In this document: piece by piece, positions 3,356 to 34,746 of the stretch
How the letters are laid out: each line of letters begins with the position of its first letter
Numbering within the stretch: the stretch's first letter is position 1
Source of the DNA: Candidatus Saccharimonadales bacterium
GTDB lineage: Bacteria; Patescibacteriota; Saccharimonadia; Saccharimonadales; UBA4665
Assembly (NCBI GenBank): GCA_044228525.1
Contig: JBGAUQ010000002.1
Coordinates: 168,367 to 232,366, forward strand
DNA length: 64,000 nt
Direction: 5' to 3'
Position numbers and translations under genes: made by a program
The notes under the pieces: generated by a model
Databases searched by the model: none
Seen by the model: only the letters and a program-made list of their open reading frames with translations
Told to the model about the DNA's origin: nothing

Positions 3356-4092
3356 GATAGTTTCTCCCGTTCTAAGCCTGTTAATTGCTCCCAGCGAGTT
3401 GCAATAATCTCGCAGTACTCGGGATCAAGTTCAACAGTCAGGCATGTTCGACCAGTCTGTTCAGCGGCCATTAATGTACTACCGCTACCAGCAAAGCCAT
3501 CGAAGATCACACCAGCAACGCTAGAGCTATTCAGAATAAGTCGGCGAAGTAGTCCGACTGGCTTCATGGTCGGGTGTAGTTTGCTTTTATTGGGTCTTGG
3601 GTAGACGAGGATGCTCTTATCTTTGCTTTTAGCAAAGGCGTGAGTCCCGTACCAGCCGTAAAGAATCAGCTCATGCTGAGGTAAGTAGTCTAGCCGTCCG
3701 ATCACGGCGTGAGTTTTTGCCCATATGAGTAGTTGAGCAAATTTACCGCCAGTAGCTTTCAGTGCAGTGACTGTTGGTATCAACATCTTATCGGAGTTGA
3801 AAATGTAGATGGTATTCTTGCGATCTAAGTACGGTTTAACCGCTAACAGCCAGTCTTCGGTGAACTTCTGGTAGGCTGATTCATCAATAATGTTATCGTT
3901 GGCAATAACTTTGTCCGTTGCCAGTTTGGCAATACCACGTTTGCTCTCAACGTAAGAAATTCCGTACGGGGGGTCACAGAGAATCACGGCTATTTTGTCA
4001 TCACCAACTAGTCGTTTTACGAGTTCTTGGTCACTGGAACTGCCACAAGCTAAGCGGTGCCTACCTAGCTGATATATTTCGCCCGACTTCAT
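3352..4092 (-). CDS. DNA methyltransferase (N6-A/N4-C, beta-class motif order)
   Basis: Motif IV 'LCDPPYG' near the N-terminus and motif I 'FDGFAGSGSTLMAAEQTGR' near the C-terminus. Confidence 0.85.
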   Translation of the reverse strand: MKSGEIYQLGRHRLACGSSSDQELVKRLVGDDKIAVILCDPPYGISYVESKRGIAKLATDKVIANDNIIDESAYQKFTEDWLLAVKPYLDRKNTIYIFNSDKMLIPTVTALKATGGKFAQLLIWAKTHAVIGRLDYLPQHELILYGWYGTHAFAKSKDKSILVYPRPNKSKLHPTMKPVGLLRRLILNSSSVAGVIFDGFAGSGSTLMAAEQTGRTCLTVELDPEYCEIIATRWEQLTGLEREKLS

Positions 4093-5354
4093 AGCTTTAC
4101 CGCCTTTTCGCCAGTCATTGCTTCCCAGCGGTCAATAATGACTTGGCAGAACACAGGTTCAATTTCGCTAAGCAAAGCCACTCGCTTCATTTGCTCAGAG
4201 GCAATAAGCGTTGACCCAGAGCCACCGAATACATCAAGCACGACATCACCAACTTTCGTGCAACGCTTTAAGGGCTTTTCGTGGAGTGTGACTGGCTTTT
4301 GAGTCGGGTGTTGGTAATCTTGCCCAGCTTCTCGCTTAGCAAGCCAGATGTCGAAGAGGTCGACTATGTCATCAATACTGCGGTTACCCGAAGCCACGTC
4401 CTTATTGAGAATTTCAGTCAGATTTCTACTGCTGTCAGCTAAATACGGTGTACCTCTTGTTGCGTAAACGCATGGCTCGTAGGCTTTATTGAAAGCAACT
4501 TGTGGCACCACGTTAAAGCCGTTCTTGATCCATAGACAAACTCGTCTATTCTTCAAACTATGTTCGGTCATTAAGGCTTGCAGTAGCCCAATATATGTCT
4601 GGTCGCAGTACATGAATATATGGGCGTTGACCTCTAGGGTTGGTAGCGAGGCTACAAGGATGTTGCCCAAGAAGCTTGAATACTCGACTTCGCTTTTATT
4701 GTCATTTGTTTTTCCGCCATAACCAGCCTTTAGCCCAACACCTTTGTCGTAGTCGAGTCCAATGTTGTAGACGGGATCACTATAGAACATGGTTGGCTTA
4801 CTGTCTCCAACCAGTCTTTTGATAATTGCTGGGTCTGCGGAATCGCCACAAATCAGACGATGTTTGCCCAGCTGAAAAAGATCGCCTAGCTGAATGGTCG
4901 TTTCGGCTGCTTTTTTGACAGCTTTCTCTTGGTCAAAATCGTCGTCATCGGTTTCTAGCGCTTCGTTCCAGATGTCGCCGAGGTCGCTGTCATCAAAGCC
5001 GACGTCGAGTAGCTCGCTAATATCGAAGTTTTTAAGAAGTTCTAGGTCGAATTCACCAGTGTTGCGGTTCAGGCGAAGGTTTAAAGCGCGTTCATGCTTC
5101 TCATCGAGGTCAATAAAGACAACTGGTACTTTTGTGTAGCCGAGATGTAGCGCCGCTTTCAGCCTTTGATGTCCCCCTATGAGGTTTCCATATCTCTCGG
5201 GTTTAGAGTTTACTACTAATGGCTCGACAAACGAGTATTGCCGAAGGCTCTCGACCAGTTGGGCAAAATCTTCGTCTGAAATCTTGCGAGGGTTGTAGGG
5301 AGAGGGCTTTATCTCATTTATGTTGATTTGTTGAACAATTAGTTTGTCTGGCAT
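4089..5354 (-). CDS. ParB-like nuclease domain fused to a DNA methyltransferase
   Basis: ParB N-terminal domain (INEIKPSPYNPRKI...GGHQRLKAALHLG). Then an MTase with the variant motif IV 'YSDPVYN' and motif I 'FGGSGSTLIASEQ'. I prefer the ATG at 5354 because GAAAGGA lies upstream. The listed ORF start at 5399 has no SD. Confidence 0.8.
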   Translation of the reverse strand: MPDKLIVQQININEIKPSPYNPRKISDEDFAQLVESLRQYSFVEPLVVNSKPERYGNLIGGHQRLKAALHLGYTKVPVVFIDLDEKHERALNLRLNRNTGEFDLELLKNFDISELLDVGFDDSDLGDIWNEALETDDDDFDQEKAVKKAAETTIQLGDLFQLGKHRLICGDSADPAIIKRLVGDSKPTMFYSDPVYNIGLDYDKGVGLKAGYGGKTNDNKSEVEYSSFLGNILVASLPTLEVNAHIFMYCDQTYIGLLQALMTEHSLKNRRVCLWIKNGFNVVPQVAFNKAYEPCVYATRGTPYLADSSRNLTEILNKDVASGNRSIDDIVDLFDIWLAKREAGQDYQHPTQKPVTLHEKPLKRCTKVGDVVLDVFGGSGSTLIASEQMKRVALLSEIEPVFCQVIIDRWEAMTGEKAVKL

Positions 5355-5436
5355 AACTTTTCCTTTCGTTATGCCTGTAATTAAAAAGAATCCTGCCATG
5401 TTACGGGAGGACTCTTAAGGGTCTCTACTACTGTTT

Positions 5437-11085: not shown

Positions 11086-11102
11086 TCTAATCATAGGCAA
11101 CC

Positions 11103-11134
11103 AAAAAGAACCCCTGCAAAGGGGTTCTTTTTTT
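11103..11134. terminator. bidirectional rho-independent terminator between hsp20 and the pilin operon
   Basis: AAAAAGAACCCCT-gcaa-AGGGGTTCTTTTTTT. An A-tract and a T-tract flank an 8-bp GC-rich stem. Confidence 0.7.
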
Positions 11135-11152: not shown

Positions 11153-11578
11153 CTATGAAACTGCGTTTGTTGACGCGGTAAGCACATAGTGGACAATGAA
11201 CTGCGACAGAGCCACGATTATCAGACCGATGATGGCGTAAATAAGCGTGTTTTTAGCATTTCCAACCCGGCCACTGTCACCACCAGAAGTGATGTAGCGG
11301 AAGCCGCCGTAAATGATCATGATGATCGCGACTATACCAACAAGCAGTGAAATAAGGTTCACGATTTTTGCCGCTAGGGCCTTTAGATCATCATTGTTAT
11401 CGCCACCGGCACTACAACTAGCATCACCACCACCGGCTGCTGCGTTTGTCCCGGTACAAAGACCTTTGGTTATATTGTTGTCTTCAGCCGCGTAGACTGA
11501 AACTGGCGCGAGCGCTGGTGCAGAAACACCCAGCAACAGTGCCATGCTGACTAGGGCAAGTTTTATTTTTTGGATCAT
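11153..11578 (-). CDS. T4SS pilin-like protein (VirB2/TrbC-type two-helix hairpin), paralog 1 of 6
   Basis: Signal peptide ending VYA|AED and one Cys pair (C-x13-C). Then helix, 'GGFRYITSGGDSGRVGNAKN', helix. Confidence 0.7.
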   Translation of the reverse strand: MIQKIKLALVSMALLLGVSAPALAPVSVYAAEDNNITKGLCTGTNAAAGGGDASCSAGGDNNDDLKALAAKIVNLISLLVGIVAIIMIIYGGFRYITSGGDSGRVGNAKNTLIYAIIGLIIVALSQFIVHYVLTASTNAVS

Positions 11579-11646
11579 TGTTTAATGGACCTTTCTTTAC
11601 GTTTACTTAACTTATACTACATGCTTGTGCTTAGATCAAGCACGGG

Positions 11647-12084
11647 TTAAGGACTAGCTTTCTTAGTTGTCTTTGGCGGATCTGTCGCATTGGTTGCCTC
11701 GGTAAATACAAAGTGCACCATAAACTGCGCCAGCACAACTACCGCGACGCCAATTAGGGCGTATATCAACGCGTTCCTAGCGCTGGCCACCTTGCCGCTG
11801 TCACCCCCAGAGGTCATAAACCTAAATCCGCTGACAATAATCATGATTACCGCTACGATGCCGGCGATATAGCTGATGATTTTTATTATGCCTTGAATGG
11901 TACTTGTTACGGCCGTATCGTCACAATTATTCCCAGTTTGGCCAATGCCTTCATTGACTTTGGCTTTAGCGGAATTCTCGGCGCCACAGTTGTCTGTTGC
12001 AGCATAGCCAGTGCCGGCAAATGCAAAAGCGGGCGTTAGTCCTAGTACGATTAATGCCATGATTGTGATTATTTTTTGTTTCAT
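11647..12084 (-). CDS. T4SS pilin-like protein, paralog 2 of 6
   Basis: Signal peptide (AFAFA|GT) and one Cys pair (C-x20-C). Then helix, 'SGFRFMTSGGDSGKVASARN', helix. Confidence 0.7.
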   Translation of the reverse strand: MKQKIITIMALIVLGLTPAFAFAGTGYAATDNCGAENSAKAKVNEGIGQTGNNCDDTAVTSTIQGIIKIISYIAGIVAVIMIIVSGFRFMTSGGDSGKVASARNALIYALIGVAVVVLAQFMVHFVFTEATNATDPPKTTKKASP

Positions 12085-12093
12085 ATGTGCTCC

Positions 12094-12489
12094 TTATATT
12101 CTTGCGGTCACGAAAAGTATTATAGCGCGGGAAAGTATAATTATAACGATGCCGATAAGGGCATTGATGGTGGTATTTCTGGCGCTCTTGATTTTTTCTG
12201 AGTCACCACCGGCTGTCATAAACTTAATGCCACTGATTATTATGATAATCACAGCCGCGACACCCGCCATGATGGCTATGATATTTGCGACCTGTACTAA
12301 AATACCGTTGTTGCCAGATATGGGATCGATTGTAGTCCTACCTTGGCAGGCTGCTGATTTCGCCAGATCACCAGTACATACATCATTTGGATTTACTAAA
12401 GAGTTTGTCTCTGCGGCCAAAGCAGATATTCCGCTAAACATAACCACTGCAACCAACATTACCGACAATAGCATCGCGACGCGTTTCAT
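12094..12489 (-). CDS. T4SS pilin-like protein, paralog 3 of 6
   Basis: Signal peptide (ISALA|AE) and one Cys pair (C-x9-C). Then helix, 'SGIKFMTAGGDSEKIKSARN', helix. Confidence 0.7.
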   Translation of the reverse strand: MKRVAMLLSVMLVAVVMFSGISALAAETNSLVNPNDVCTGDLAKSAACQGRTTIDPISGNNGILVQVANIIAIMAGVAAVIIIIISGIKFMTAGGDSEKIKSARNTTINALIGIVIIILSRAIILFVTARI

Positions 12490-12779
12490 TTGATGTTGAT
12501 CCTGTTTACGACGAAAGCAACCAAAGCTTGTGCCGAGATCGCGACAACTAGTCCAATCAAAGCGTATATGATACCGCTGCGGGCAGTTGAGGCTTTTTGG
12601 GGGTCACCCGAAGAGGTTATATATTCAAAACCTGACTTTACGATCATCACTAGAGCTATGGCGCCGATTATGCCAAATACAATCCCCAAAATAATCTGAA
12701 TCGTGCTCGGGCCTGCAGAGACTTTAGGCAATGAATGTGGTGCAATTTCTGAAACCGCAATTATTAGTGTGTTTATCAT
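12486..12779 (-). CDS. T4SS pilin-like protein, paralog 4 of 6 (minimal, Cys-free)
   Basis: 97 aa with helix, 'SGFEYITSSGDPQKASTARS', helix. A 4-nt overlap links it to paralog 3. Confidence 0.65.
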   Translation of the reverse strand: MINTLIIAVSEIAPHSLPKVSAGPSTIQIILGIVFGIIGAIALVMIVKSGFEYITSSGDPQKASTARSGIIYALIGLVVAISAQALVAFVVNRINIK

Positions 12780-12792
12780 GCTTATTTCCCCG

Positions 12793-13323
12793 TTAGTTTA
12801 GCCTACTGCCAATAAATGTTACAAAAGCGACAGAAACAAGCGCTACCGCCAAACCTCCGAAGGCATTGATCAGAGTGGAGCGGGCTTTGGCTGTCTGCTC
12901 AGGGTTGCCACTGCTGGTCGTGTACTGAAAAGCGCCGACAAAGACAAAGGCAATAGCCACCATGCCGGCAATTCTGAGCAAATTATCTATAATCGCGAGC
13001 ATCAGAGCAGGCAAATCGCTGCTGGTCTTGCCGCACTCATTCGCCACAGACTGGTTAAATATGTTGAAGCACTTGAAATCACAGGGGGACGCTTCATTGG
13101 CATTGGTCCGGCTACCCGTGAATGATTTGTCCATGTAGTAATACCACGGCACCAGCCCAAAAAATGTTCGTTTGCAGTCGGCGGCGCTGGCTACTTCAGA
13201 GTTTCTGCCACCGTCCTTTGGTTGTACGGCTGATGCTTTTTGTGTCGTGACACCGACAATCCCGGCTACTAATATGGCCATGCATAACGCGGAAAATAAT
13301 ATCGGGAATACTCTTTTAATCAT
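12793..13323 (-). CDS. T4SS pilin-like protein, paralog 5 of 6 (extended ectodomain)
   Basis: Signal anchor, an ~80-aa ectodomain with four Cys, then helix, 'GAFQYTTSSGNPEQTAKARS', helix. Confidence 0.65.
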   Translation of the reverse strand: MIKRVFPILFSALCMAILVAGIVGVTTQKASAVQPKDGGRNSEVASAADCKRTFFGLVPWYYYMDKSFTGSRTNANEASPCDFKCFNIFNQSVANECGKTSSDLPALMLAIIDNLLRIAGMVAIAFVFVGAFQYTTSSGNPEQTAKARSTLINAFGGLAVALVSVAFVTFIGSRLN

Positions 13324-14162
13324 GTCTTAAACAATCCTCCGGGGATTAGGAACTGCAAGAACGAGAATAGCAGCAGATAGGCAATAATTGCCAGCAGGGT
13401 ATTGCTGATACGCTTTTTTGCCTCAGACACTTTTTGCGGGTCACCGGCAGACGCCGAGTATTGAATACCGCCCATAATTAACGACGCGATCGCGATTAGT
13501 CCAAAGATGGCAGTCACGGCTTCAATCGCTGGATTTACATACTTTTTAATCAAGTCGCAGCTGTTTTTTGTGCATTTTTGGTTGGCGTCGCTAGGGCAGC
13601 CTTGCGGCAATGGCTGATTGGCGTTGGCGGCTGCCGTGCAGGCGGCCGGGTCAACCGTGGACTCAATTTTAGCGTTACAGATTTCATCACCGCTCTCACA
13701 GGTTCCTTCGGGGTCCTCATCGACTCCAAACCCTGTGGCAGCCTTTGTGCGACTACCGCCTTCGGCATCAAGCACCGCGTCGAGATTCTTTTTGAAGGCC
13801 GTGACGCTGGCGGGAGTTTTGTCCTTTGCCAAAGCTTTTGTAAAATATGCTTTAGCCTTATCTGTGACACAGCTTTCTTTTACTTCAGCGTCCTTACAAT
13901 GATGCGTCGCGACCGTACGGGCGTAGCCCACATATTTGCCGTCACATACCGAATCAACATTTGTGGGCAGAATTATTCTACAGTCTTGCACTGTTTGGCT
14001 TGGACCCCGAGTACCAGGATCGGTAGGAATAGGTTCAGCGCCCGTTTTGGGAGTAATCACGACAGTAAACAACGCTAAAAATATAATAAGCAACCCAACT
14101 AGCGCTGCTACACGGTGTTTGCTGACGATACTCAGCCGGTTTTTTGAAGTTGTACTTGTCAT
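13320..14162 (-). CDS. T4SS pilin-like protein, paralog 6 of 6 (large Cys-rich ectodomain)
   Basis: N-terminal TM anchor, an ~170-aa ectodomain with ten Cys, then helix, 'GGIQYSASAGDPQKVSEAKK', helix. A 4-nt overlap links it to paralog 5. Confidence 0.6.
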   Translation of the reverse strand: MTSTTSKNRLSIVSKHRVAALVGLLIIFLALFTVVITPKTGAEPIPTDPGTRGPSQTVQDCRIILPTNVDSVCDGKYVGYARTVATHHCKDAEVKESCVTDKAKAYFTKALAKDKTPASVTAFKKNLDAVLDAEGGSRTKAATGFGVDEDPEGTCESGDEICNAKIESTVDPAACTAAANANQPLPQGCPSDANQKCTKNSCDLIKKYVNPAIEAVTAIFGLIAIASLIMGGIQYSASAGDPQKVSEAKKRISNTLLAIIAYLLLFSFLQFLIPGGLFKT

Positions 14163-14291
14163 TATTGTTTTGTTTTAGACGCTTATGCTCCATATTATGC
14201 GTCTGGAGGCGGTCTTTTGCAAGTCGATCGCTGATAAGAGATGCCGCCACTATACCGCTTGTGCTATAGTATTGGTAAAAATGAACAGCGT

Positions 14292-16691
14292 ATGAAAAGA
14301 AAATTATTGTATCTTGTACCCCTTATCGCCTTCGCCTTTATAACTATTGGCACGACTTTTGTGACACCAGCGACAGTTTATGCCGTTGAACCTAATGCGT
14401 CTGAATCAGATCCTGGCGCAAATGTTTCGCCACAGATCGAGTGTCCAAAATTTTCTTTTGATCTAGCCTGGGCATTTTGCCCCGTCATGAAGGCGATGGC
14501 TTTTTCTGTCGCTTCGATGGACAATTTCATAAACAAAGAGATGACTGTGGGCAGCAGCAATGACAGCAGCAATCCCAATCAGATATTTTGCGATAGTCAG
14601 TCCAGCGGCCAGGCCCTAAAGAGCTGTACCGCCTACCATAACGCCTGGACCAGCGTGCGTAACATCGCTCTTGGTCTAATGGGAATTTCGATCATTATCG
14701 TCTTGATTGCTCAGGCATTGGGCTTTGAGTTTCTCGACGCCTATACCATTCGCAAGGTGTTGCCACGACTCTTGATTTCAGCAGTCGGCATAACTTTGTC
14801 ATGGCAATTGATGCAGTTCTTCGTAACTCTATCGAACGATCTGGCCTATGGCATCAGGGTAATTATTTACCAGCCGTTCGTTGATTTTGGTGATGTAACC
14901 CTCGGCAATGGAATTTTTGGTAGTGGCACGGTCGCCAGCTTGTTGGCTATCGGAGCTCTGACGGCCTTGGGCTGGATTGGTCTGCTTAGCTATCTCTTAA
15001 CAGCCTTGTTGGCAGTATTTATTGCTTTGCTAGTACTAATCCTGCGACAGATGCTAATAATTGTCTTAATTATAATGGCGCCTATCGCCATAGCTTGTTA
15101 CGTGCTGCCTAACACCCAGAAAGTTTACAAACTCTGGTGGGAATCATTCAGCAAAGCACTCTTGATGTTCGTCATGATCGCCGCTTTGATCGCCGTTGGT
15201 CGCGTCTTCTCGGTAGTAGCCCTGACTAGCACCACCGGTACTATCGGACAATTGGTCGGTTTTGCGGCGTATTTCTTACCGTATTTCTTGATCCCAGCCA
15301 CCTTCAAATTCGCCGGTTCGGCCATGAGCCAGATTGGTGGCTTCGTCAACGACCGTGGCAAAGGCGGCTTCGACCGTCTACGCGGCTACCGCGGTAATGT
15401 CGCCAAAAAGAATATGAGCGACCTGGCTACAGGGAATCGTCTGCACAACGAGAGCACTCGCTTCTTAGGTTATGGTCGGTTTGCAAGGGGCTTTAACCGA
15501 GCCACCCGCAACACTGCCAACCTGCAAAATGCCGGATACAATCCTCGGCGCATGCGTGAACGTATGCGAGCCGCTTCAGGCACGGCGATTGTGAACCAAG
15601 CCAACGAAGCCGCCGAAAAGAACGAGGCCTTTAAGACCTTGCTCGGCAATGACGACGTCATGGAGGCCGCACTTTATGAATCTATCCACGGCGGCGGTGA
15701 AGCAACCATCCGTTCTATATTGCGAGAGCGCGGCTTCAAAGAAGACATGGTCTCAAATGCTGTCGGCGCCTTTCACAATGCCAAGAATTCTATGGGCACG
15801 GAAGCCTTCAAGACGGCACTTGCGGTTCACAGCTTCGGTACCAGTAGCGGTTGGACGCCTCGTTACAAAAAGAACGCCGCGACCGGGAATTACATTGATG
15901 CGAACGGTAATGATATCGCTGGTGGCGAACAGGGAGATGTCAGCTTGCGCGTGCTAGCGCGCGGTGGCGGCGGTGCGGGTGAGGCCCGCGCGGCAATAGA
16001 TTCCGTTGCTGGCAATGACCGTCTACGCATGATTTCAATGCTTGGCCAAGCCAGGCAGCAAGCCGAATCCAAGGGTCGATTCGATCTAGTTGGTGGCAGC
16101 TTCACCCAAGACGTTCTTAACATGGAAAGATTCCACACTGGGCAGCTTGGCGGTGTCACGCTAGGTCCTAACGGTGAGCCAAGCGGCATACAAACCCTGA
16201 CCAAGCTAACTCATGAGGGCGCGATCGACGGCCAAGCCCGACACCGCATCGCCTCCGGTCACCGCCGCTCGATGGACGCCCTGGCGCCAGAGTTCCGCAA
16301 GGCTATCGAAGCTTCACTATATAACTCCAAGGGACAGGACGGCTGGTCAGCTGACGAAGGGGTCGCCCAGCTAGCCTTTATAGCCAACTCGCTTGACGCC
16401 GCCTCAAACGGCGCGCCAGAGAACGCTCGCGTCATCAAACAGCAAGTCCTTGATCAAACGATAGACGTCAAAAATATGCCTTCCGAAATGGTCCAGGCCA
16501 TCGCCAATACGCCTCAAAAGGCCGAATGGCTGGCCTCGCAAGACAGTGTCACTATCGGCTCACTGATGGAGCAGATGCGTACCGACCCAAGCTTCTCCAG
16601 GTATCGCCGCGAATACAACCGTCCAGAGGATAGCCGACTGGCTGGCACGGCGGCTGAGCTCGAAGCCCAGCAGCAACAAGGCAAGCCTTAA
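14292..16691 (+). CDS. VirB6/TrbL-like polytopic T4SS channel protein with a long hydrophilic C-terminal domain
   Basis: Signal peptide MKRKLLYLVPLIAFAFITIGTTFVTPATVYA when started at 14292 (the listed ORF begins at 14241). About 6-7 hydrophobic spans occupy aa ~130-370, followed by ~430 hydrophilic residues. It is divergent from the pilin operon. The call rests on topology plus context, not on a sharp motif. Confidence 0.55.
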   Translation: MKRKLLYLVPLIAFAFITIGTTFVTPATVYAVEPNASESDPGANVSPQIECPKFSFDLAWAFCPVMKAMAFSVASMDNFINKEMTVGSSNDSSNPNQIFCDSQSSGQALKSCTAYHNAWTSVRNIALGLMGISIIIVLIAQALGFEFLDAYTIRKVLPRLLISAVGITLSWQLMQFFVTLSNDLAYGIRVIIYQPFVDFGDVTLGNGIFGSGTVASLLAIGALTALGWIGLLSYLLTALLAVFIALLVLILRQMLIIVLIIMAPIAIACYVLPNTQKVYKLWWESFSKALLMFVMIAALIAVGRVFSVVALTSTTGTIGQLVGFAAYFLPYFLIPATFKFAGSAMSQIGGFVNDRGKGGFDRLRGYRGNVAKKNMSDLATGNRLHNESTRFLGYGRFARGFNRATRNTANLQNAGYNPRRMRERMRAASGTAIVNQANEAAEKNEAFKTLLGNDDVMEAALYESIHGGGEATIRSILRERGFKEDMVSNAVGAFHNAKNSMGTEAFKTALAVHSFGTSSGWTPRYKKNAATGNYIDANGNDIAGGEQGDVSLRVLARGGGGAGEARAAIDSVAGNDRLRMISMLGQARQQAESKGRFDLVGGSFTQDVLNMERFHTGQLGGVTLGPNGEPSGIQTLTKLTHEGAIDGQARHRIASGHRRSMDALAPEFRKAIEASLYNSKGQDGWSADEGVAQLAFIANSLDAASNGAPENARVIKQQVLDQTIDVKNMPSEMVQAIANTPQKAEWLASQDSVTIGSLMEQMRTDPSFSRYRREYNRPEDSRLAGTAAELEAQQQQGKP

Positions 16692-16705: not shown

Positions 16706-18433
16706 TTATCGACCAAAGAAGTCAGGTCGTAAGTGTGGAGGTATTAATCCCTCCATTGGGTTAGGTGAGCCGGCTGGCACCGTTTCTTGACCAAGAGCAT
16801 ATAGCGCGTTAGCTAGGGCGATTAGCTTAGTAACTTCAACGTCGGTATTGTCGCCTTCAGGCTTATCGCTGCGCGTCCAACGATCGATCGCGTCTTCACC
16901 ATACTGACCAAGGCTGCCCATGCGGCTGCCAACTCCAACTACGGCTGGGCGATCAGTACGACTACCTGGCTGTTGACCAGGGATCCTGACTTCCATACCA
17001 CCACCCCAAGAACGAGCTTTTTGCCCTTTCTTGGCTGGCTTTTCGATGATTAGGTCGGCGTCACGGTTGCGGTTCGGGCTAGTAGTCTTGATATATATCT
17101 GGTCGCCTTCCATCGTGAAGTTCAGAACCCAGCCGGTTGTAACATCAACCAGTTGTGATCGATCAGTTTTACGGTCATGGTTAACTTGGCCTTTGGCGAC
17201 CTGAGCTGGATCAACCGCGCGACGTCGCAAGCCAGCCAGACGAGCCACGTTTGGACGACCTGGCAAGCGAGGCTGAAATACTTTGATCTCAGTTTCGATG
17301 GCAGGCGAAGAGACGTCGGCGAGAGCGTCAATCATTACGTTAACACGCTCAAGAGCAATTCGACGCTGTTCACGCGCATCCATTCGTTCCCATTCCTCAT
17401 GACCCAAGTTGTGGCCAACGAGACGGCCCTCATGAGTATCAGTTGTCGGGTAGACGCCAGCTAGTTCAGGAGGTGTGCCTTCGGGAATCAACCCGCCGAG
17501 CCCAACAAAGTGCATCGTGGCTCGACCGGCCTTGCGGCGACGGACTGCCCATGGGTTTTCTTGGTCACTGCGTCGTTCGCCGTGTGGGCGTGGAGCTGTG
17601 CGGGTCGCTAGTGGAATCAGGGCATCAACAGCGTCAAATGGGTCAGCGCCGCGATTAGGCCGATCAGCGAGTGGCAGCGGGCTTGGGCTGACTTCGCCGC
17701 GTGTTTCAACTTTAGAAATTATGATTCGGTTATGAGGGTCGTTGCCGCGATGACCAGGGAAGATTGTGCGGCCTTCGCTATCGATCCACTCTTCGCCAAT
17801 TCGACCCTGCAATATGTCCTTGCCGATTTTGCGCTGCGGCAGGGCAGAGCCGTCATCACCACGAACCGTTCTATGCAACGGAATGCTGGTTGGGAAGTCA
17901 CGGAAATCAGCCGGCGCTCCGGCAGCTTCTGCGGCAGTTAGGTCATAAACTCGTGAGCCAAAGATGTAATATCGGTTGGCTGGAGTGCCGTCCTCATGGC
18001 TGGTAGTAACGATGTACTCTTGGTCCATCGATTGGTCGCCCCACTTCATTACAGCGCCTTCGGAATCTTCTAAATTCCACTCCGTACCACGTCGTACCGT
18101 GCCGTCAGCGCGATCGTATTGAACTGGGACTTCGTCTTCAAAAGGACTCTCGTAATCTTGTCGTTCAGGCTTGCCAGTTAGTGGATTTAATTTTTTCTCA
18201 GAAGGCCTAAAGCCCTCACCCTCACGGCGACGCTTCAGCTCAGCACGAACTTCGAACTGATTTTCAGTCAGCATTTCGAGCTCATAAGGAGTAAGCTCTT
18301 GCATATTAGTTTTTTTAGTTGCTGGATCAAAAATAGGAACGTAGCCAGTGCCATGCGGATCAAACTGAATCAAATCCCTGACCGATTGAGGGTCTGTAGG
18401 GGTGGTTGAGCCGGGGCGTGGTGCGCGTTCCAT
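16706..18433 (-). CDS. hypothetical 575-aa soluble, Arg/Glu/Pro/Gly-rich protein
   Basis: A long uninterrupted ORF in the most GC-rich part of the window. It has no signal peptide, no TM span and no motif I can assign. Confidence 0.5.
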   Translation of the reverse strand: MERAPRPGSTTPTDPQSVRDLIQFDPHGTGYVPIFDPATKKTNMQELTPYELEMLTENQFEVRAELKRRREGEGFRPSEKKLNPLTGKPERQDYESPFEDEVPVQYDRADGTVRRGTEWNLEDSEGAVMKWGDQSMDQEYIVTTSHEDGTPANRYYIFGSRVYDLTAAEAAGAPADFRDFPTSIPLHRTVRGDDGSALPQRKIGKDILQGRIGEEWIDSEGRTIFPGHRGNDPHNRIIISKVETRGEVSPSPLPLADRPNRGADPFDAVDALIPLATRTAPRPHGERRSDQENPWAVRRRKAGRATMHFVGLGGLIPEGTPPELAGVYPTTDTHEGRLVGHNLGHEEWERMDAREQRRIALERVNVMIDALADVSSPAIETEIKVFQPRLPGRPNVARLAGLRRRAVDPAQVAKGQVNHDRKTDRSQLVDVTTGWVLNFTMEGDQIYIKTTSPNRNRDADLIIEKPAKKGQKARSWGGGMEVRIPGQQPGSRTDRPAVVGVGSRMGSLGQYGEDAIDRWTRSDKPEGDNTDVEVTKLIALANALYALGQETVPAGSPNPMEGLIPPHLRPDFFGR

Positions 18434-18571: not shown

Positions 18572-19564
18572 ATGGCAACATATAAACTTATTCAAGATAT
18601 CGAGGCTGAGGACAAAATCCTAGGTCCCTTAACGTTAAGACAGTTTATTTTTGCCTTGATTACGGTGTTTTTTGGCTATTTGTGCTTTATTGTGCTGACA
18701 AAAGGCGCCGCCTTTATGTTGGTGGTTTTTTTGCCGCCGTTTTTGTTCTTTGGTTTTTTTGCCTTGCCACTGGGACGCGACCAGCCAACAGAGGTCTGGG
18801 CGCTCGCCAAACTGCGTTTTTTGTTTAAGCCGCGTAAGCGAATCTGGAACCAGAGCGGCGTCAAGGAGCTGGTTACAATCACGGCTCCAAAAAAGATTGA
18901 GCGGCATCTAACTAAGGGCTACTCGCAAGTCGAGGTCGACAGCCGCCTGCATGCCTTGGCCGATACGATTGATAGCCGTGGCTGGGCTGTTAAGCACGTG
19001 AATTTGAATGCCTATGCCGCGCCGGTTTATACGCCGCCGGCCTCCGACCGCCTAGTAGACCTGTCGACTTTACCGCAAGTCGTGCCCAACAACGACATCG
19101 TAGCGGCCGACGATATGATGGATATTGATCACAGTCCAATTGCTCAGCAGTTTCAAAACATGATCGAAGAATCTTCGGCCGGCCGCCGCGAGGGCGTGGT
19201 GGAGCGCATGAATAACGCCACTCCTGTTCAGACACCGACCGCCCAGCCCCAGAATAACTACTGGTTTATGGATAATTCCGCTAAGCCTGCCTCTGACGAC
19301 GATAACAGCTTGGCTACAGTCAAGACTGGCGATTCTAGCAAACCTAAACCATATGGCAATTTGCGGTCGGTCAAAACATCTACCAAAAAAGCCCAAAAAG
19401 CGACTACACAAGCCTCTCCACCGCCGATGACAGCCCCGTCTGACCCTGCTATACTATCCTTGGCAGAAAACGACGATCTTAATGTGGCGACACTAGCCCG
19501 CGAAGCCAAGCGTGCAAAGGGTAAAGACAATTCAGACGATGAGGTCGTTGTTTCACTGCATTAG
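18572..19564 (+). CDS. PrgI/VirB3-like membrane protein with a long disordered C-terminal tail
   Basis: The N-terminus 'YKLIQDIEAEDKILGPLTLRQFIFALITVFFGYLCFIV' plus a second TM matches the PrgI-family layout. It sits just upstream of VirB4. The remaining ~230 aa are P/S/T/Q/D-rich. Confidence 0.6.
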   Translation: MATYKLIQDIEAEDKILGPLTLRQFIFALITVFFGYLCFIVLTKGAAFMLVVFLPPFLFFGFFALPLGRDQPTEVWALAKLRFLFKPRKRIWNQSGVKELVTITAPKKIERHLTKGYSQVEVDSRLHALADTIDSRGWAVKHVNLNAYAAPVYTPPASDRLVDLSTLPQVVPNNDIVAADDMMDIDHSPIAQQFQNMIEESSAGRREGVVERMNNATPVQTPTAQPQNNYWFMDNSAKPASDDDNSLATVKTGDSSKPKPYGNLRSVKTSTKKAQKATTQASPPPMTAPSDPAILSLAENDDLNVATLAREAKRAKGKDNSDDEVVVSLH

Positions 19565-20509: not shown

Positions 20510-22438
20510 ATGGCTAAGCGTCGAAAACAGCCGAGGATGGATCCGGTCGCTATCGCCCAGGCGCAGCGTGCCCGCGAGCAACAAGAGGTTCAGGCAGCTT
20601 TCCTTAAAGGAGTCACGGCCTTGCGTGACTTCATCGCGCCAAGCTCTTTGGAATTTAGTAGTACTCATTTCCAAATCGGCACTCGTTACGCCCGAACTTA
20701 TTACGTTTACGGCTACCCACGACAGGTCTACACTGGCTGGCTGAGTAGCATGGTTAACCTCGATGAAGTTATCGATATGTCGTTATACATTTATCCGGTA
20801 GAGAGCCAGGTCGTACTAGAAAACCTGCGCAAAAAAGTCACCCAACTCGAAGCCGGTATCCAGCTTGAATCCGAAAAAGGTCACGTCCGCGATCCTGGCA
20901 AACAGGCCGCCATCATGGACGCCGAAGAGATCCGCGACAAGCTTCAGGTTGGCGAAGAACGTTTCTTCCGCTTTGGGCTTTATTTCACGATTTATGGCAG
21001 TAGTCTTGAGGAACTGGAATATATTTCGCACAAAGTCGAATCAATGCTTGGTCAGCAGCTGGTTTATAGCAAGCCGGCAACCTCGCAGCAGGAGCAGGGG
21101 CTCAACAGTACCGTGCCGCAAATGATCGACCAGCTGCAGATTCGCCGCAATATGAGCACTGGTGCCCTCTCGACAAGCTTTCCGTTTACTAGCGCCGATT
21201 TGACGCAGGATAATGGCATCCTATACGGCATTAACATGCACAATTCCGGCCTGGTCATTTTTGATCGTTTCTCTCTGGAAAACGGCAACTCGGTCGTGTT
21301 TGCTAAGTCCGGCGCAGGCAAGAGCTTCACGGTCAAATTGGAGGCCCTGCGCAGCATGATGTTTGGCACTGAAATATTCATTATCGACCCCGAAAACGAG
21401 TACCAACGAATGTGTGACGCGGTTGGCGGTGCCTACGTGCGACTTAGCCTTAACTCGTCGACACGAATCAATCCGTTTGACCTGCCCAAAGTCGTTGATT
21501 CCGATGAAGCCGACAATGCCTTGCGCTCAAATTTGATTACTCTGCATGGCTTGCTACGGCTAATGATGGGTGGCGCACAAATTCAAATGCAAGGTTCGGG
21601 CAGCACAACCATGCCGGCTCTATCACCGACCGAAGAAGCCGATCTAGATTCAGCCCTGATTGATACCTACGCCAAGGCTGGTATAACCAACGACCCACTG
21701 ACGCACACTGCTCGGCCACCGGCTATATCTGACCTCTATGACACCTTGCTGCACATGGGCGGCACTGGCCCACAGCTCGCTCAAAGACTCCGCAAATATA
21801 CTACTGGCACATTCGCAGGAATATTTTCTCAGCAAAGCAATATTGACATCAACAACCCGTTGGTCGTGTTCAACTTGCGCGATCTCGAGGATGAACTACG
21901 ACCAGTCGCCATGTATATAGTCTTGAATTACATCTGGAATAAGACAAAGAGCGACCAGAAACGCCGCCTGCTGTTGATTGACGAGGCATGGCAGCTTATG
22001 AAATATGAGGATTCAGCCAATTTCATGTTTAGCTTAGCCAAGCGAGCGCGCAAATATAATCTTGGCATTACCACGATTAGCCAGGACGTCGAGGATTTTA
22101 TGGGTTCACGGATGGGGCGAGCCATCGTCGCTAACTCTTCGATGCAGTTCCTGCTCAAACAATCGCCATCGGCAGTTGACGTCTTAGCCGATGTATTTAA
22201 GCTCACCAGCGAGGAGAAAAAACGCCTCAGCCAATTCCCGGTCGGCCAGGGTCTGTTTTTTGCAGGACAAAACCACGTCCACCTCCAAGTTGTTGCCAGT
22301 CCAACCGAAACCGGCCTGATTACAACCAACCCACAACAGGTTAAAACCATCAATTCTGCCGATATTGAGGGTAATCTCGATCAAACCCCTGAAGGCACGA
22401 TTGATCTCGAAAATCGCCTATCCCCCGGCAATGCCTAG
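20510..22438 (+). CDS. virB4: VirB4-family T4SS ATPase (Gram-positive PrgJ/TrsE-like)
   Basis: N-terminus 'FQIGTRYARTYYVYGYPRQVYTGWL', Walker A 'FAKSGAGKSF', Walker B 'RRLLLIDEAWQLM', and 'ITTISQDVEDF'. Confidence 0.9.
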   Translation: MAKRRKQPRMDPVAIAQAQRAREQQEVQAAFLKGVTALRDFIAPSSLEFSSTHFQIGTRYARTYYVYGYPRQVYTGWLSSMVNLDEVIDMSLYIYPVESQVVLENLRKKVTQLEAGIQLESEKGHVRDPGKQAAIMDAEEIRDKLQVGEERFFRFGLYFTIYGSSLEELEYISHKVESMLGQQLVYSKPATSQQEQGLNSTVPQMIDQLQIRRNMSTGALSTSFPFTSADLTQDNGILYGINMHNSGLVIFDRFSLENGNSVVFAKSGAGKSFTVKLEALRSMMFGTEIFIIDPENEYQRMCDAVGGAYVRLSLNSSTRINPFDLPKVVDSDEADNALRSNLITLHGLLRLMMGGAQIQMQGSGSTTMPALSPTEEADLDSALIDTYAKAGITNDPLTHTARPPAISDLYDTLLHMGGTGPQLAQRLRKYTTGTFAGIFSQQSNIDINNPLVVFNLRDLEDELRPVAMYIVLNYIWNKTKSDQKRRLLLIDEAWQLMKYEDSANFMFSLAKRARKYNLGITTISQDVEDFMGSRMGRAIVANSSMQFLLKQSPSAVDVLADVFKLTSEEKKRLSQFPVGQGLFFAGQNHVHLQVVASPTETGLITTNPQQVKTINSADIEGNLDQTPEGTIDLENRLSPGNA

Positions 22439-25835: not shown

Positions 25836-25845
25836 ACAATGCCGT

Positions 25846-28800
25846 ATGAATATATCTCGTAATTATACTTGTCCAAAAGGGATCATCCGGAAATGCTTCA
25901 GCCAGCGTTTTGTGTTTGCTTTGCTTGCTTTGCTAATGGCGTGTAACGTCGTATTGCCCGCAGCATATGCCGTACAGGCTGATGGTCCATTGCCGGAATC
26001 TGAAAAAAAGGCACTCGACAATTTCACGCACTGGGTAGGTGTTTGTGGCAGCGACATTTCAGTTGGGGACGCAATCACGGAAGCCGCTAGCATTACACCA
26101 GGTCCGATATATATAATGGGCGACTCAATAACAAATTCGGCTAAAAACTCATACAAAAATAAGTTTAAAAGTCCCTGGAAGCCTACAGTGGAAGGGCTTG
26201 ATAGTCGCCAGATCACAGGATCAAGACCCAGTCCTAGCGGGATTGGTCAAATCCAAAAAGACAAAACCAAGATTGGCGAGGCATCCGCAATCGTTATAGC
26301 TCTCGGCACGAACGGCGTGACTAACCCGGCAGCTACGACAACAGCGCAAGTCAAACAATTTATGGAAAAACTGAAGCCTCTTAACAAAAAAAATGCTCCT
26401 GTGTTTTGGGTAAACGTCATCGACAGCAAGCGCGATGCGGCATCCAAAACAACCAACAAGGCGATTGAGGAGGCCGTAGGCAATGACGCTACGATTATCG
26501 ACTGGTACACTGCCGCTAAGTCAGGCGCGAGCTTGAGCTCATTTGAGTCTGGCATACATCCGACAAAGCAAGAAGATATTTATCTATTGGTGAACACTGT
26601 TTATGAAGCAGTTTCCCAGGCAGCGCCTCCGACAACTGCCGCTGCCGCGAGCCCAGCCACTCCAACTAACGGCCCTGTTAGCACCACCAAACCAACGCCG
26701 AGCACAAACATTAAAGTCGGCGATGCCTTTAAAGGCACAGCGTCTAATTATGGTTGGGACCCTGTTACCAAATACGTAGATCCCAATGACGCGAATGATC
26801 CGGCTTCCGGCATAAGTAATGATAATCCTGGCATTGCCGTATATAACCGCGGCACTCTCAAAGGCTATTGGCTAGTTACAACCGAGGATGGCAAGAGCGC
26901 TATATTACAGCAGACTGACGTAGGGCCTGGCAGCGTAAACGCCTTTATTGATATCAATACCGTAGCCGTTCGATCAGTTTTTGGTATGGAACAAGGAAAC
27001 TCATTTCTAAAGAAGAATTGGACCTTTAAGTATCTCGGCAAAGATAAGCCAGCCGGCGCAATCACTACCGATTCTGGTAAGAAGGAAGATCGAACATCTG
27101 CAAATCCAGAATCCGCTGCTGCTGCCCCAGCACAAACAGCCCAGTTATGCTGCCCGACTTCAACAGAGAACGGTGACGCCGCCCTCGTCGGAGGAGATAA
27201 ACCTGAAAAAGTTTACAACTTTTTTGTAGGTAAGGGGCTTAAGCCTTACCAGGCAGCCGGAATCATGGGTAATATTCAGCACGAATCTGGTTTTGAGCCA
27301 AAAAAGATTGAAGGCGGTAAGCTCAGCGAAGATCCGGCGGATGCTGGGACTGGTGGATACGGTATTGTTCAGTTCACCGCCGGTAACGGCGAGCAGTCAA
27401 AAACCAAGGTAGACGGCATAATTGAAGCAGCTGGCATCACAGGCGCGCCGCATGAGCTTCAAACACAGCTTGAAATGATCTGGGCGCAATTGGAAGGCAA
27501 GGCCGGTAAATGGTCCGAGGAACAGGCAGGCAAAGACATAAAGGCGAGTAAAAACGTCGAGGACGCGACTCGGGCCTGGCAAGGCGATAACCGGGCAGGC
27601 GGTAGCTACATTGGATACGAGCGTCCCGCATCTCAGACAGGAAGCCTGCAAAAGAGAATAAAAGCCGCTAGGGGTTACCTAACTAAGTATGGCAGTGGCG
27701 GCAGTCCGGCGGCAGACGCGGCCGCCAACGACCCCAATGCCCCCGAGCCATCGCCCTCCATACAAGGGTCAGACGCATCGGTTGTTTGCTGTCCACCTGA
27801 AGGCAGCCTCGGGACAGGCGAACCCGTCGAAGACGGCTCACCCGCTGATTGGAAAAAAATGTATACTGGCGCCAACAAGGCCAAAGTCGACCGTATGGCC
27901 CGTGGCAAAATTACTCCAAATACCTTGGTAATTCACTATACAGTTGGCTCACAAGAAGGACAGGCCTTACTAGACTTTTTCACGTCTGGCGGTAGAGTAA
28001 CCGGTATTCAGTTTAATGTTGGCAAGGACGGACAAGTCTACCAGTATTACCCCTTAAATGATATGCAAAAGGTTAATCACGTTGGCAACGCCAACGCTAA
28101 GTCGATCGGCATCGAAATTACCGGTATGGATGTAACTGAAATTATTAATAACGAGAAGCAGTTCCAGGCTGTTGCCGCATTGTCTAAGTTCCTTTGCGAC
28201 AAATATCAAATTCCTTGCTCACAGCCTAAGGGCGACATTACTGGTGACGGTATCGAAGGCATGCAAGGCATGATAGGTCACGACGAGACACCGACTAATG
28301 ACCACACTGACCCAGACGCCACAAAGGCAGAAGCAACAAAAGGCATAGACCGAACCGATTCGAGCAAGCACCCCTACATGAAGAAGCTTCGTACCGCGCT
28401 GGGCTTTGATCCTACTCCAGGCAAACAAGGCGGTGGCGCAAGTGAAGCCGCAGTAACCGACCCATCAACAAATGGTCAGTGCGCCGGAAACGATTCCGCA
28501 AGCGGCACGGGCACAAAAGAAAATCCTGTAGGTGAAGGCCCAAATAAATCGCTGGCACTGGAAGCCGTTAAGTATGACACTAAAGCGAATGACAATAAGT
28601 ACACCTATAAAATGGGTGGGCTCCATGGACCACTGTCTCAGCTAAAAGCTTTCGCACAGAATGGCGGTGAAGCCGACTGTAGTGGTTTTGTAAGATACGT
28701 TATCTGGAAGGTTTATGGCCATGATGTCGGTAGTTTTGTTACCCAAGACTTACCTGGAAACAAGAACTTCCGGGAAGTCGCAGCAGCGGACGTAGCAGCT

Positions 28801-28980
28801 GGCGACATTGGGTGGAGAAGCGAACACGTTGATTTTATTACCGAGAATAAGGGTGGAGGTAAGCTCCACCAGTTCGGCGCCCACTCTACAGCTAACGACC
28901 TTTATGGCGGGGACATACCAGCCAGTGGCTACACTAAGTATTACCGCTATGTCGGCCCTAAGGGTGGAGGAGGTCAGTAG
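25846..28980 (+). CDS. five-domain secreted/anchored peptidoglycan hydrolase (SGNH esterase, RlpA-like DPBB, phage-tail-lysozyme-like, Amidase_2, NlpC/P60)
   Basis: Signal anchor, then five modules. (1) 'IYIMGDSITNS', 'ALGTNG' and 'GIHPT' give SGNH blocks I/III/V. (2) 'GTASNYGWDP...QQTDVGPG...IDIN' is RlpA-like DPBB. (3) 'YQAAGIMGNIQHESGFEP...GYGIVQFT' is lysozyme-like. (4) 'LVIHYTVG', 'NHVGNANAKSIGIEITG' and 'GHDET..DHTDP' indicate a MurNAc-L-Ala amidase. (5) 'YKMGG...ADCSGFVRYVIW...GDIGWRSEHVDFI' is NlpC/P60. Confidence 0.8.
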   Translation: MNISRNYTCPKGIIRKCFSQRFVFALLALLMACNVVLPAAYAVQADGPLPESEKKALDNFTHWVGVCGSDISVGDAITEAASITPGPIYIMGDSITNSAKNSYKNKFKSPWKPTVEGLDSRQITGSRPSPSGIGQIQKDKTKIGEASAIVIALGTNGVTNPAATTTAQVKQFMEKLKPLNKKNAPVFWVNVIDSKRDAASKTTNKAIEEAVGNDATIIDWYTAAKSGASLSSFESGIHPTKQEDIYLLVNTVYEAVSQAAPPTTAAAASPATPTNGPVSTTKPTPSTNIKVGDAFKGTASNYGWDPVTKYVDPNDANDPASGISNDNPGIAVYNRGTLKGYWLVTTEDGKSAILQQTDVGPGSVNAFIDINTVAVRSVFGMEQGNSFLKKNWTFKYLGKDKPAGAITTDSGKKEDRTSANPESAAAAPAQTAQLCCPTSTENGDAALVGGDKPEKVYNFFVGKGLKPYQAAGIMGNIQHESGFEPKKIEGGKLSEDPADAGTGGYGIVQFTAGNGEQSKTKVDGIIEAAGITGAPHELQTQLEMIWAQLEGKAGKWSEEQAGKDIKASKNVEDATRAWQGDNRAGGSYIGYERPASQTGSLQKRIKAARGYLTKYGSGGSPAADAAANDPNAPEPSPSIQGSDASVVCCPPEGSLGTGEPVEDGSPADWKKMYTGANKAKVDRMARGKITPNTLVIHYTVGSQEGQALLDFFTSGGRVTGIQFNVGKDGQVYQYYPLNDMQKVNHVGNANAKSIGIEITGMDVTEIINNEKQFQAVAALSKFLCDKYQIPCSQPKGDITGDGIEGMQGMIGHDETPTNDHTDPDATKAEATKGIDRTDSSKHPYMKKLRTALGFDPTPGKQGGGASEAAVTDPSTNGQCAGNDSASGTGTKENPVGEGPNKSLALEAVKYDTKANDNKYTYKMGGLHGPLSQLKAFAQNGGEADCSGFVRYVIWKVYGHDVGSFVTQDLPGNKNFREVAAADVAAGDIGWRSEHVDFITENKGGGKLHQFGAHSTANDLYGGDIPASGYTKYYRYVGPKGGGGQ

Positions 28981-31950: not shown

Positions 31951-31959
31951 TTATCTATT

Positions 31960-33051: not shown

Positions 33052-33330
33052 ACGGACCTCCTGTTACTAATAACAAAGTTATTTATATTAATTAGTTGTA
33101 GTTTGTTGTAGGTGGTGTGGATTGTGGGTATAAGTAAACTATTAACAGATATAAAAAACCTAAAACCTAGGTGTATAACCCGCTGGTAAAAGTCTTGTAT
33201 AAACTTGTATAAACCCCCATTTTTATAAACAGCCATAAAACCGGTATTTTTTACAGCTGAGAATAAGCCCCGCAAAACCCCACAAATACTAAACAGCTTT
33301 CCCACAGGTTGTACTACTAAAATAACTGGC
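33052..33330. promoter_or_regulatory. dnaA-dnaN intergenic region: AT-rich tract, DnaA-box-like sites, tandem 10-mer (candidate oriC half / DUE)
   Basis: The spacer is 279 nt, unusually long for this genome. It holds an AT-rich run at 33075-33110. TGTGGATTG (33116-33124) and TTTCCCACA (33298-33306) resemble the TTATCCACA box. CTTGTATAAA is repeated in tandem at 33194-33213. Confidence 0.4.
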
Positions 33331-34710: not shown

Positions 34711-34746
34711 TTGTCCTCCTACTCGTAGCAAGTAACTATAAACCAA

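Follow-up and report, generated by a model that had tools for sequence, protein, structure and literature searches.

A conserved array of six VirB2-like pilin genes in the chromosomal type IV secretion locus of an uncultured Saccharimonadales bacterium

Six tandem genes sharing a pilin module

The stretch of DNA analysed here (the window; 64,000 nucleotides of contig JBGAUQ010000002.1, assembly GCA_044228525.1, Candidatus Saccharimonadales bacterium) carries on its minus strand, at positions 11153-14162, an array of six tandem genes, named P1 to P6, whose products end in a common module of two hydrophobic helices. Based on family profiles, orthology and gene context, these are identified as VirB2-like pilin genes of a chromosomal, monoderm-type type IV secretion system (T4SS) of Saccharimonadales, located near the replication origin (oriC). 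The array represents a known, published system in one more uncultured genome; an earlier note, made from the letters of the window alone, had implied that it was novel, but six-gene VirB2-like arrays are already a published hallmark of Saccharibacteria T4SSs. What is new here is the recognition of six fixed subunit types, the pairing of their cysteines, a promoter-like element and gene duplication peculiar to P1, an aromatic loop in P5 and a hypervariable ectodomain in P6.

The list of open reading frames (ORFs) agrees with the coordinates and lengths first given for the six genes (141, 145, 131, 97, 176 and 280 aa), as it does with the two 4-nt overlaps, between P3 and P4 and between P5 and P6, and with the cysteine patterns. 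P1 (11153..11578, minus strand, as are all six) encodes 141 aa: a Sec-type leader (approximately residues 1-30) comes first, then a loop of the form C-x13-C, and the two-helix pilin module ends the protein. The same organisation is found in P2 (11647..12084; 145 aa), with a C-x20-C loop, and in P3 (12094..12489; 131 aa), with a C-x9-C loop; P2 is a P1-like paralog, its module being 55% identical to that of P1. P4 (12486..12779; 97 aa) has neither leader nor cysteine, and its pilin module is preceded only by a 24-aa N-terminal tail with a conserved 'LP' motif. P5 (12793..13323; 176 aa) consists of a leader, which holds one further cysteine, a 72-aa ectodomain with four cysteines and the pilin module; a P5-specific motif, C-x-FFGLxPWYxYM/L followed later by another cysteine, recurs in the N-termini of its orthologs. 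P6 (13320..14162; 280 aa) has a long leader and an ectodomain of ~160-170 aa with ten cysteines ahead of the module, and the alignment of its orthologs reveals an invariant C-x4-C-D-LIKKYVNP segment before helix 1 and an LQFLIPGG motif at the C-terminus. The series had been described as graded in size, a description that does not hold: P1-P3 are nearly equal, P4 is short and leaderless, and only P5 and P6 are enlarged. The exact sequences of P6 and P1 are already present in public assemblies.

The common C-terminal module proposed in the earlier note is borne out by both alignment and Pfam profiles. In a MAFFT alignment the six modules stay in register over ~76 columns, with pairwise identities of 20-55%. 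The loop motif reported for all six proved only partly general: the module itself is common to them, while the literal TSGGD occurs in P1 and P2 only and is replaced elsewhere by TAGGD, TSSGD, TSSGN or SASAGD, which gives the consensus G-F/I-x-Y/F-x-T/S-S/A-G/S-G-D/N-...-A-K/R. All six proteins score above the gathering threshold (26.6 bits) of the Pfam family T4SS_pilin (PF18895), with 61.7, 53.9, 31.9, 48.7, 33.3 and 32.8 bits for P1 to P6 (E-values from 7e-17 to 1.4e-7), and the resemblance of the modules is therefore not due to chance. The TrbC/VirB2 family (PF04956; gathering threshold 27.9 bits) is matched above its cut-off by P1 (29.2 bits) and below it by P2 (22.2), P3 (13.4) and P4 (14.1), with no match for P5 and P6; it is also on record for many P1 orthologs, P1 having 1764 detectable homologs. 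The NCBIfam model NF045849 (Mbov_0395 family pilin-like conjugal transfer protein) is matched by all six, P6 reaching 40.8 bits against a cut-off of 40. The proteins have the features of VirB2-type pilins, namely two hydrophobic helices, a short charged connecting loop and a leader, except that P4 is leaderless and that P5 and P6 are larger than typical; genes for VirB4, a VirB6-like protein and VirB3 lie alongside the array. The VirB2/TrbC-type assignment made earlier is thereby upheld by Pfam and NCBIfam profiles and by T4SS gene context.

The assignment rests on these profiles and on context, and the fold data neither confirm nor contradict it. AlphaFold2 models built with ortholog alignments are of moderate confidence. 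The P1 model (predicted local distance difference test, pLDDT, 72) comprises a leader helix, a short helix in the cysteine loop and a long hairpin (H62-97/H102-140); the P6 model (pLDDT 75) comprises a helical bundle at residues 56-134 (pLDDT >90), a low-confidence cysteine-rich linker and a hairpin (H204-237/H242-272). Foldseek searches of the Protein Data Bank (PDB) with the P6 and P1 models gave no significant match (best E = 1.3 and 2.1); the top match of P1 is subunit c of ATP synthase (E = 2.1), the method discriminating helical hairpins poorly. A profile of P1 orthologs likewise retrieved no solved pilin among the PDB sequences. P6 showed no similarity to VirB5-type tip proteins: no VirB5/TraC family appeared in a Pfam scan with E up to 1, and no such protein in the PDB matched the P6 model. 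Relatives of the P6 ectodomain outside P6-type pilins were not found by phmmer among 1.84 billion representatives. Twelve of the 13 matches are P6-type pilins; the last (P0361), a 1069-aa Ala/Arg-rich ORF of perfect repeats that matches in 14 stretches, was rejected as a homolog, since it has the look of a high-GC tandem repeat translated spuriously.

Conservation of the array across Saccharimonadales

A scan limited to one genome per species yielded 80 loci, nearly all of them from metagenome-assembled genomes titled Saccharibacteria or Saccharimonadales; their ORFs were called and searched with a hidden Markov model built from the six modules, which retrieved 286 pilin ORFs. In 35 loci a clean, uninterrupted six-gene minus-strand array lies upstream of the VirB6-like gene. 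Most of the remaining loci are cut by contig or flank ends, and these 35 species-level genomes were used for the comparisons by position. The earlier note had asked whether the set of six is conserved or expanded: six genes are conserved, in the order 6-5-4-3-2-1, in all 35 complete arrays, and the T4SS arrangement is kept in the Saccharimonadales loci whose flank was recovered. Orthology was assessed by the array position of each protein's best BLAST hit in every other genome. The best hit falls at the same position in 96% of comparisons for P1, 81% for P4 (966 of 1190), 99% for P5 (1183 of 1190, the cleanest group) and 97% for P6 (1151 of 1190), so that positions 1, 4, 5 and 6 behave in sequence comparison as clean ortholog groups. 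Positions 2 and 3 often find position 1 as their best hit, and P1-P3 therefore form a closer sub-family. Among orthologs the module is 69% identical for P1, the most conserved paralog, and 52%, 40%, 46%, 52% and 45% identical for P2 to P6, respectively; the P6 module is only 25-28% identical to those of the other paralogs of the same genome. Longer arrays of seven to nine genes occur in three loci (L029, L068 and L078), which have two, four and two P1-like genes; the extra copies are of the P1 type only, and positions 4, 5 and 6 stay single-copy.

Each position also has its own size and cysteine content. Median lengths for positions 1 to 6 are 141, 134, 131, 102, 133 and 175 aa, and strong length variation is limited to P6 (129-301 aa) and, to a lesser degree, P5 (109-217 aa). 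Two ectodomain cysteines are present in 31 of the 35 orthologs at position 1, 33 at position 2, 31 at position 3 (with four cysteines in 3 more) and 30 at position 5 (again with four in 3 more); at position 6 the number is even, from 2 to 10, in 33 of 35. Counts are even in 32-34 of 35 orthologs at positions 1, 2, 3, 5 and 6. Position 4 has no cysteine in 21 orthologs and two in 11 (zero or two in 32/35), and an N-terminal hydrophobic leader was not found in 32 of the 35 P4 orthologs, even in the longest ORF, by a crude hydropathy test. Such a pairing rule matches the expectation for extracytoplasmic disulfides, which we predict for these ectodomains.

P1 is further set apart by the spacer in front of it. 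With a median of 74 nt, the interval separating P2 from P1 is the sole sizeable gap in the array; the other four have medians of -4 to 6 nt. In the window this spacer (11579..11646, read on the minus strand) contains TTGATC (11639-11634) and, after a 17-nt interval, TATAAG (11616-11611), beyond which comes the ribosome-binding site GAAAGG. A conserved CTTG(A/C), ~17 nt and TGnTATAA recur ~30 nt before the P1 start: TATAA is found there in 33 of 34 loci, as compared with 26% of shuffles, and TGnTATAA in 27; the GAAAGG ribosome-binding site is present in 32 of 35. P1 alone has its own conserved promoter-like element, with boxes resembling -35 and -10 sequences. The spacer showed no conserved RNA structure (mean z-score 0 across 33 loci), and an Rfam scan of the whole window gave no match. 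Consensus matches point to other candidate signals at the two ends of the operon. A terminator-like hairpin with a T-run (11101..11131, minus strand) lies 3' of P1, between the convergent P1 and hsp20 genes, and the divergent spacer (14163..14240) between the pilin operon on the minus strand and the VirB6-like gene on the plus strand has promoter-like sites. One of these matches lies within the spacer just upstream of P6 (minus strand, 14222-14194), another begins just inside the VirB6-like ORF (minus strand, 14278-14249), and a third falls inside the P6 ORF (plus strand, 14059-14087).

The six genes diverge quickly between species and yet appear to be under constraint. Comparison with the closest relative (VirB4 96% identical) gives identities of 75-83% for P1-P5 and of 87% for the C-terminal 127 aa of P6; in a second relative (VirB4 93%) the identity of P2-P6 falls to 32-47%. 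The apparent ratio of nonsynonymous to synonymous substitution rates (dN/dS) is 0.03-0.15 against the two closest relatives, a measure of constraint that is qualitative only because dS is saturated (>1); in all six genes amino-acid change appears far rarer than silent change. All six are intact in close relatives, and the disabling changes that the earlier note had envisaged are not seen there. In closest-relative comparisons (for P6, against P0123-P0125) the ectodomain is less conserved than the module in P1 (66% vs 87%), P4 (58% vs 92%), P5 (75% vs 92%) and P6 (62-73% vs 82-92%), whereas in P2 and P3 the ectodomain does not diverge faster than the module. Other surface components of the T4SS, namely the product of orf1109, the cell-wall hydrolase and the VirB6-like protein, diverge at least as fast as the pilins; fast change is therefore not peculiar to the pilins but characterises the exposed parts of the machine as a whole.

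The secretion locus and its relation to published systems

The genes for the VirB6-like protein, PrgI, VirB4 and the hydrolase are transcribed divergently from the array, all on the plus strand. The VirB6/TrbL-like multi-pass membrane protein (14241..16691; 816 aa), the presumed assembly platform, has no Pfam match in the window even at E = 1; PF19590 (TrbL_3) is on record for its orthologs in two other loci, L083 (91% identical) and L086, a discrepancy that may reflect a difference in version or threshold. It is followed by a PrgI-family (VirB3-like) protein (18572..19564; 330 aa; PF12666, 47.3 bits), a VirB4 ATPase of the CD1110, or monoderm, family (20510..22438; NF045971, 359 bits against a cut-off of 325; PF19044) and a functionally VirB1-like cell-wall hydrolase (25846..28980; 1044 aa) that combines lysozyme-like and amidase domains (PF18013, 89 bits; PF01510, 64 bits). 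More than 120 protein clusters match VirB4 at 87-97% identity; those with a name are labelled Candidatus Saccharimonadales/Saccharibacteria or Patescibacteria. The other flank of the array carries hsp20 and a gene for a ComFC-like phosphoribosyltransferase.

Several further observations concern these surroundings. The genes recF, dnaN and dnaA (30898-34746) lie directly downstream of the T4SS cluster, which places the array ~20 kb from the replication origin region; proximity of T4SS genes to the origin region has been reported for Patescibacteria. Inside the cluster, on the opposite strand, a 575-aa ORF (16706-18433, minus strand) without a Pfam match is kept in a close relative (581 aa, 69% identity) and is replaced in L086 by a 275-aa plus-strand gene. 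In the interval 22506-28980, the relative whose VirB4 is 96% identical shows 68% identity for orf1109 and only 37.5% for the hydrolase, and the catalytic domain of the hydrolase is swapped between loci: Amidase_2 in the window, a beta-lactamase-like domain in L083 (8631-15124) and Amidase_3 in L086 (12023-17433). Near the start of the window, a terminase-like ORF (Terminase_6C; 1441-2949) and a fusion of ParB_N with an N6/N4 DNA methylase (4089-5399) may be remnants of a prophage or mobile element.

The closest published counterparts are the arrays of Nanosynbacter lyticus TM7x and Southlakia epibionticum ML1. In TM7x, six small secreted proteins encoded by the VirB4/VirB6 genes were described as conserved across Saccharibacteria and likened to pertussis toxin subunits (McLean et al. 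2020, PMC7427843); the TM7x-type array was later reassigned as pilins by structure-based annotation (PMC10633639). In Southlakia, SEML1_0014-0019 are six PF18895 proteins, each marked GD/ES/ES in transposon sequencing (Tn-seq) and all scored essential (Wang et al. 2023, PMC10633639); SEML1_0013 is annotated as TrbL/VirB6-like, SEML1_0020 as Hsp20 and SEML1_0021 as ComFC-like (K02242) (PMC10633639). Common to the window and both organisms are six PF18895 genes in tandem, bordered on one side by a VirB6-like gene and on the other by the genes for Hsp20 and a ComFC-like protein, beside PrgI and VirB4, near oriC and divergent from the VirB6-VirB4 operon; a layout of the ML1 type is also found in L086 and in the 35 genome loci. 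The size pattern in ML1 is similar, including a short fourth-from-last gene of ~100 aa. However, the gene next to VirB6 encodes 132 aa there and the second one 185 aa, whereas P6 of the window, with 280 aa and ten cysteines, stands at the upper end of the range of 129-301 aa. More broadly, a survey by Quinonero-Coronel et al. (2025, PMC12102498), in which pilin arrays prove common in Patescibacteria, counts 441 of them across 383 assemblies, each with 2-11 highly divergent VirB2-like genes (mean identity 25%) lying near virB4, especially in Saccharimonadia, and raises both the analogy with Bartonella and Anaplasma and versatility of host range. Position-specific orthology, cysteine pairing, the P1 promoter-like element and P1-only duplication are not reported in the passages of the survey considered here.

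Outside the Patescibacteria, Gram-positive T4SSs have a VirB2-like protein, PrgF of pCF10, which is indispensable for conjugation; a PrgF pilus seated on a VirB6 pentamer is supported by both modelling and labelling (ter Beek et al., December 2025 preprint). The array resembles the VirB2/TrbC/TraA pilins and PrgF in having two hydrophobic helices, a short charged loop and genes for VirB6, VirB3 and VirB4 nearby. Those systems have one pilin, with VirB5 in many Gram-negatives, whereas the window array has six paralogs and no VirB5; it also differs in its predicted disulfide-bearing N-terminal ectodomains, of up to ~160 aa in P6, and the PDB searches revealed no sequence or fold match to a solved pilin. 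Mycoplasma and Bacillota elements with Mbov_0395-family (NF045849) pilins have one or two copies instead of six and are without the P4, P5 and P6 types. For instance, a tblastn search against plasmids revealed, on the megaplasmid of Pontibacillus sp. (NZ_CP062975), a gene annotated as pilin-like that is 40% identical to P1 over the module. That locus (L082, 11779-21332) contains two tandem pilin-like genes, each with a leader, a cysteine pair and the module (hmmsearch, 8.6e-22 and 4.8e-15), followed by genes for a VirB6-like membrane protein of 779 aa, small proteins, a VirB4 of the CD1110 family and a peptidoglycan hydrolase of 1050 aa. The window has the same architecture; from this, the Saccharimonadales array appears to be an expansion of a pilin type found in Bacillota T4SS loci and already equipped with a disulfide pair. 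Bartonella and Anaplasma also have several divergent virB2 copies within one T4SS locus, as cited in PMC12102498; the copies are regarded as variants, antigenic or host-range, of a single role, whereas the Saccharimonadales types are orthologous across the whole order and, judged by their signatures, not interchangeable. The 'Pam' pilus of the candidate phyla radiation (preprint) was considered and set aside as an unrelated Ig-fold donor-strand pilus that is not made of these proteins.

A proposed heteromeric pilus or conduit and the alternatives to it

We lean towards the explanation that the array encodes a heteromeric T4SS pilus or conduit with non-redundant subunits, of which P1 would be the major one and P5 and P6 the specialised ones. 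This draws on homology, context, orthology, cysteine pairing, constraint and the promoter-like motif as found here and on essentiality taken from the literature, while polymerisation, stoichiometry and the positions of subunits are what we infer from them. The earlier note had offered a heteropolymer of major and minor subunits as one option, and this option fits the position-specific orthology in 35 genomes, the promoter-like element of P1 and the essentiality published for Southlakia. Each protein would be inserted in the membrane via its two C-terminal helices, with the N-terminal part outside and stabilised by disulfides; VirB4 would then power their extraction from the membrane and their stacking on the VirB6-like platform, the product being a short pilus or conduit that crosses the cell wall in the direction of the host bacterium. 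The six would be anciently diverged subunit types with fixed roles rather than spare copies. P1 may be the bulk subunit, since it is the most conserved, alone passes the TrbC/VirB2 threshold, is the sole type to be duplicated and has a conserved promoter-like element to itself. P2 and P3 could serve as P1-like shaft or minor subunits; P4, leaderless and almost without ectodomain, could be an adaptor or initiator. P5, with its FFGLxPWYxYL disulfide loop, and P6, with its large, fast-evolving, cysteine-rich helical ectodomain, would be specialised subunits in low copy number, most probably placed at the distal end, where the host is contacted. The N-termini in known pilus structures are on the outer surface (ter Beek et al. 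2025 preprint); P6 and P5 may therefore sit at a tip or cap, because an outer-surface domain of ~160 aa would be hard to fit on every subunit.

Several points weigh against this explanation. No filament of these proteins has been seen, and the essentiality scored by Tn-seq for upstream genes of the operon could reflect polar effects. P2-P6 fall under the cut-off of the TrbC/VirB2 Pfam family, the modelled fold amounts to a generic helical hairpin, and an ectodomain of ~160 aa on a VirB2 fold is without structural precedent. Best hits do not separate P2 and P3 cleanly from P1, and the roles of the three may overlap. The putative P1 promoter is a consensus match only.

The nearest alternative is that the six proteins are parts of an envelope-embedded translocation channel, forming a short stalk or ring on VirB6 with no extended extracellular pilus. 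The strong hydrophobicity of the pilin module agrees with this, as do the N-terminal regions of P1-P4, which at only 24-33 aa would barely clear the cell wall; moreover, a conjugative pilus has never been visualised on a monoderm T4SS, and a structure that is short or transient is suggested by the PrgF study's authors. We nevertheless judge such a channel less likely than the pilus or conduit, though plausible, given that the disulfide-rich ectodomains of P5 and P6 outpace their modules, suggesting exposure to the outside or to the host, and that a Saccharibacterium imaged by cryo-electron tomography (cryo-ET) shows tubes 9 nm wide and 60-70 nm long entering the host, although these have been attributed to no genes. 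A second possibility is that the paralogs are interchangeable alternatives, used singly or in mixtures for adaptation to hosts or evasion of recognition, as proposed for Bartonella and Anaplasma VirB2 and as already suggested for Patescibacteria arrays in PMC12102498. It would account for the several-fold faster evolution of the pilins relative to VirB4, with 76-87% against 96% identity in the closest relative, for the hypervariable length of the P6 ectodomain and for the occasional duplication of P1-type genes. This idea, also raised in the earlier note, sits poorly with the occurrence of the same six types in the same order in every complete array of the 35 species, four of them as clean ortholog groups, each type with its own conserved signature motifs and none missing or inactivated in close relatives; in Southlakia each of the six is essential (PMC10633639), and no repeats or recombination cassettes were noticed. 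We consider it improbable.

Two further readings concern the nature of the proteins themselves. The original TM7x interpretation, by analogy with the ptx/ptl locus of pertussis toxin, took them for Sec-exported effector or toxin subunits secreted by the T4SS (proposed in 2020, PMC7427843), a reading with which their N-terminal signal peptides and the adjacent T4SS genes agree. Every member, however, ends in two transmembrane helices matching pilin profiles, P4 is entirely leaderless, and later structure-based annotation reassigned the array as pilins, which makes secreted toxin subunits very unlikely. The earlier note had also named an outcome that would weaken the filament idea, namely that the module is a two-helix membrane fold of unrelated kind, for example that of a holin or bacteriocin-immunity protein. 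The inability of Foldseek to separate helical hairpins, seen in the ATP synthase subunit c match of P1 (E = 2.1), leaves it some room; against it stand the absence of any such Pfam family at E up to 1, pilin profiles that pass their cut-offs with up to 62 bits, and the conserved synteny with VirB6, VirB3 and VirB4 both in Saccharimonadales and on a Bacillota plasmid. Such a fold is scarcely credible here.

Returning to the heteromeric pilus or conduit, a structure of suitable shape has been described. Cryo-ET of Mycosynbacter amalyticus revealed a 'lance' ~9 nm wide and 60-70 nm long with a barbed tip, which resembles a conduit seen reaching into the host and to which no genes were assigned. 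We regard this lance or conduit as a plausible product of the array, a connection that is our own. The F pilus has a diameter of ~8.7 nm, and conjugative pili are similar in width to the lance. More specifically, and only tentatively, the six types might assemble in a fixed architecture as one heteropolymeric VirB2-type tube that is the M. amalyticus lance, with P1 and P2/P3 as its shaft and the cysteine-rich P6 and P5 as its distal, host-contacting cap. If this were true, the lance would be the first heteromeric T4SS pilus and the physical conduit through which these epibionts feed on their hosts, and variation in P6 would set host specificity.

Few systems have been shown to be essential to Saccharibacteria in their life as epibionts; the T4SS is among them, and the pilin array is its clearest difference from Gram-positive conjugation machines. 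The comparative rules found here leave the overall picture unchanged; they turn a vague 'divergent pilin array' into hypotheses on the role of each subunit, which are testable in the genetically tractable Southlakia and TM7x.

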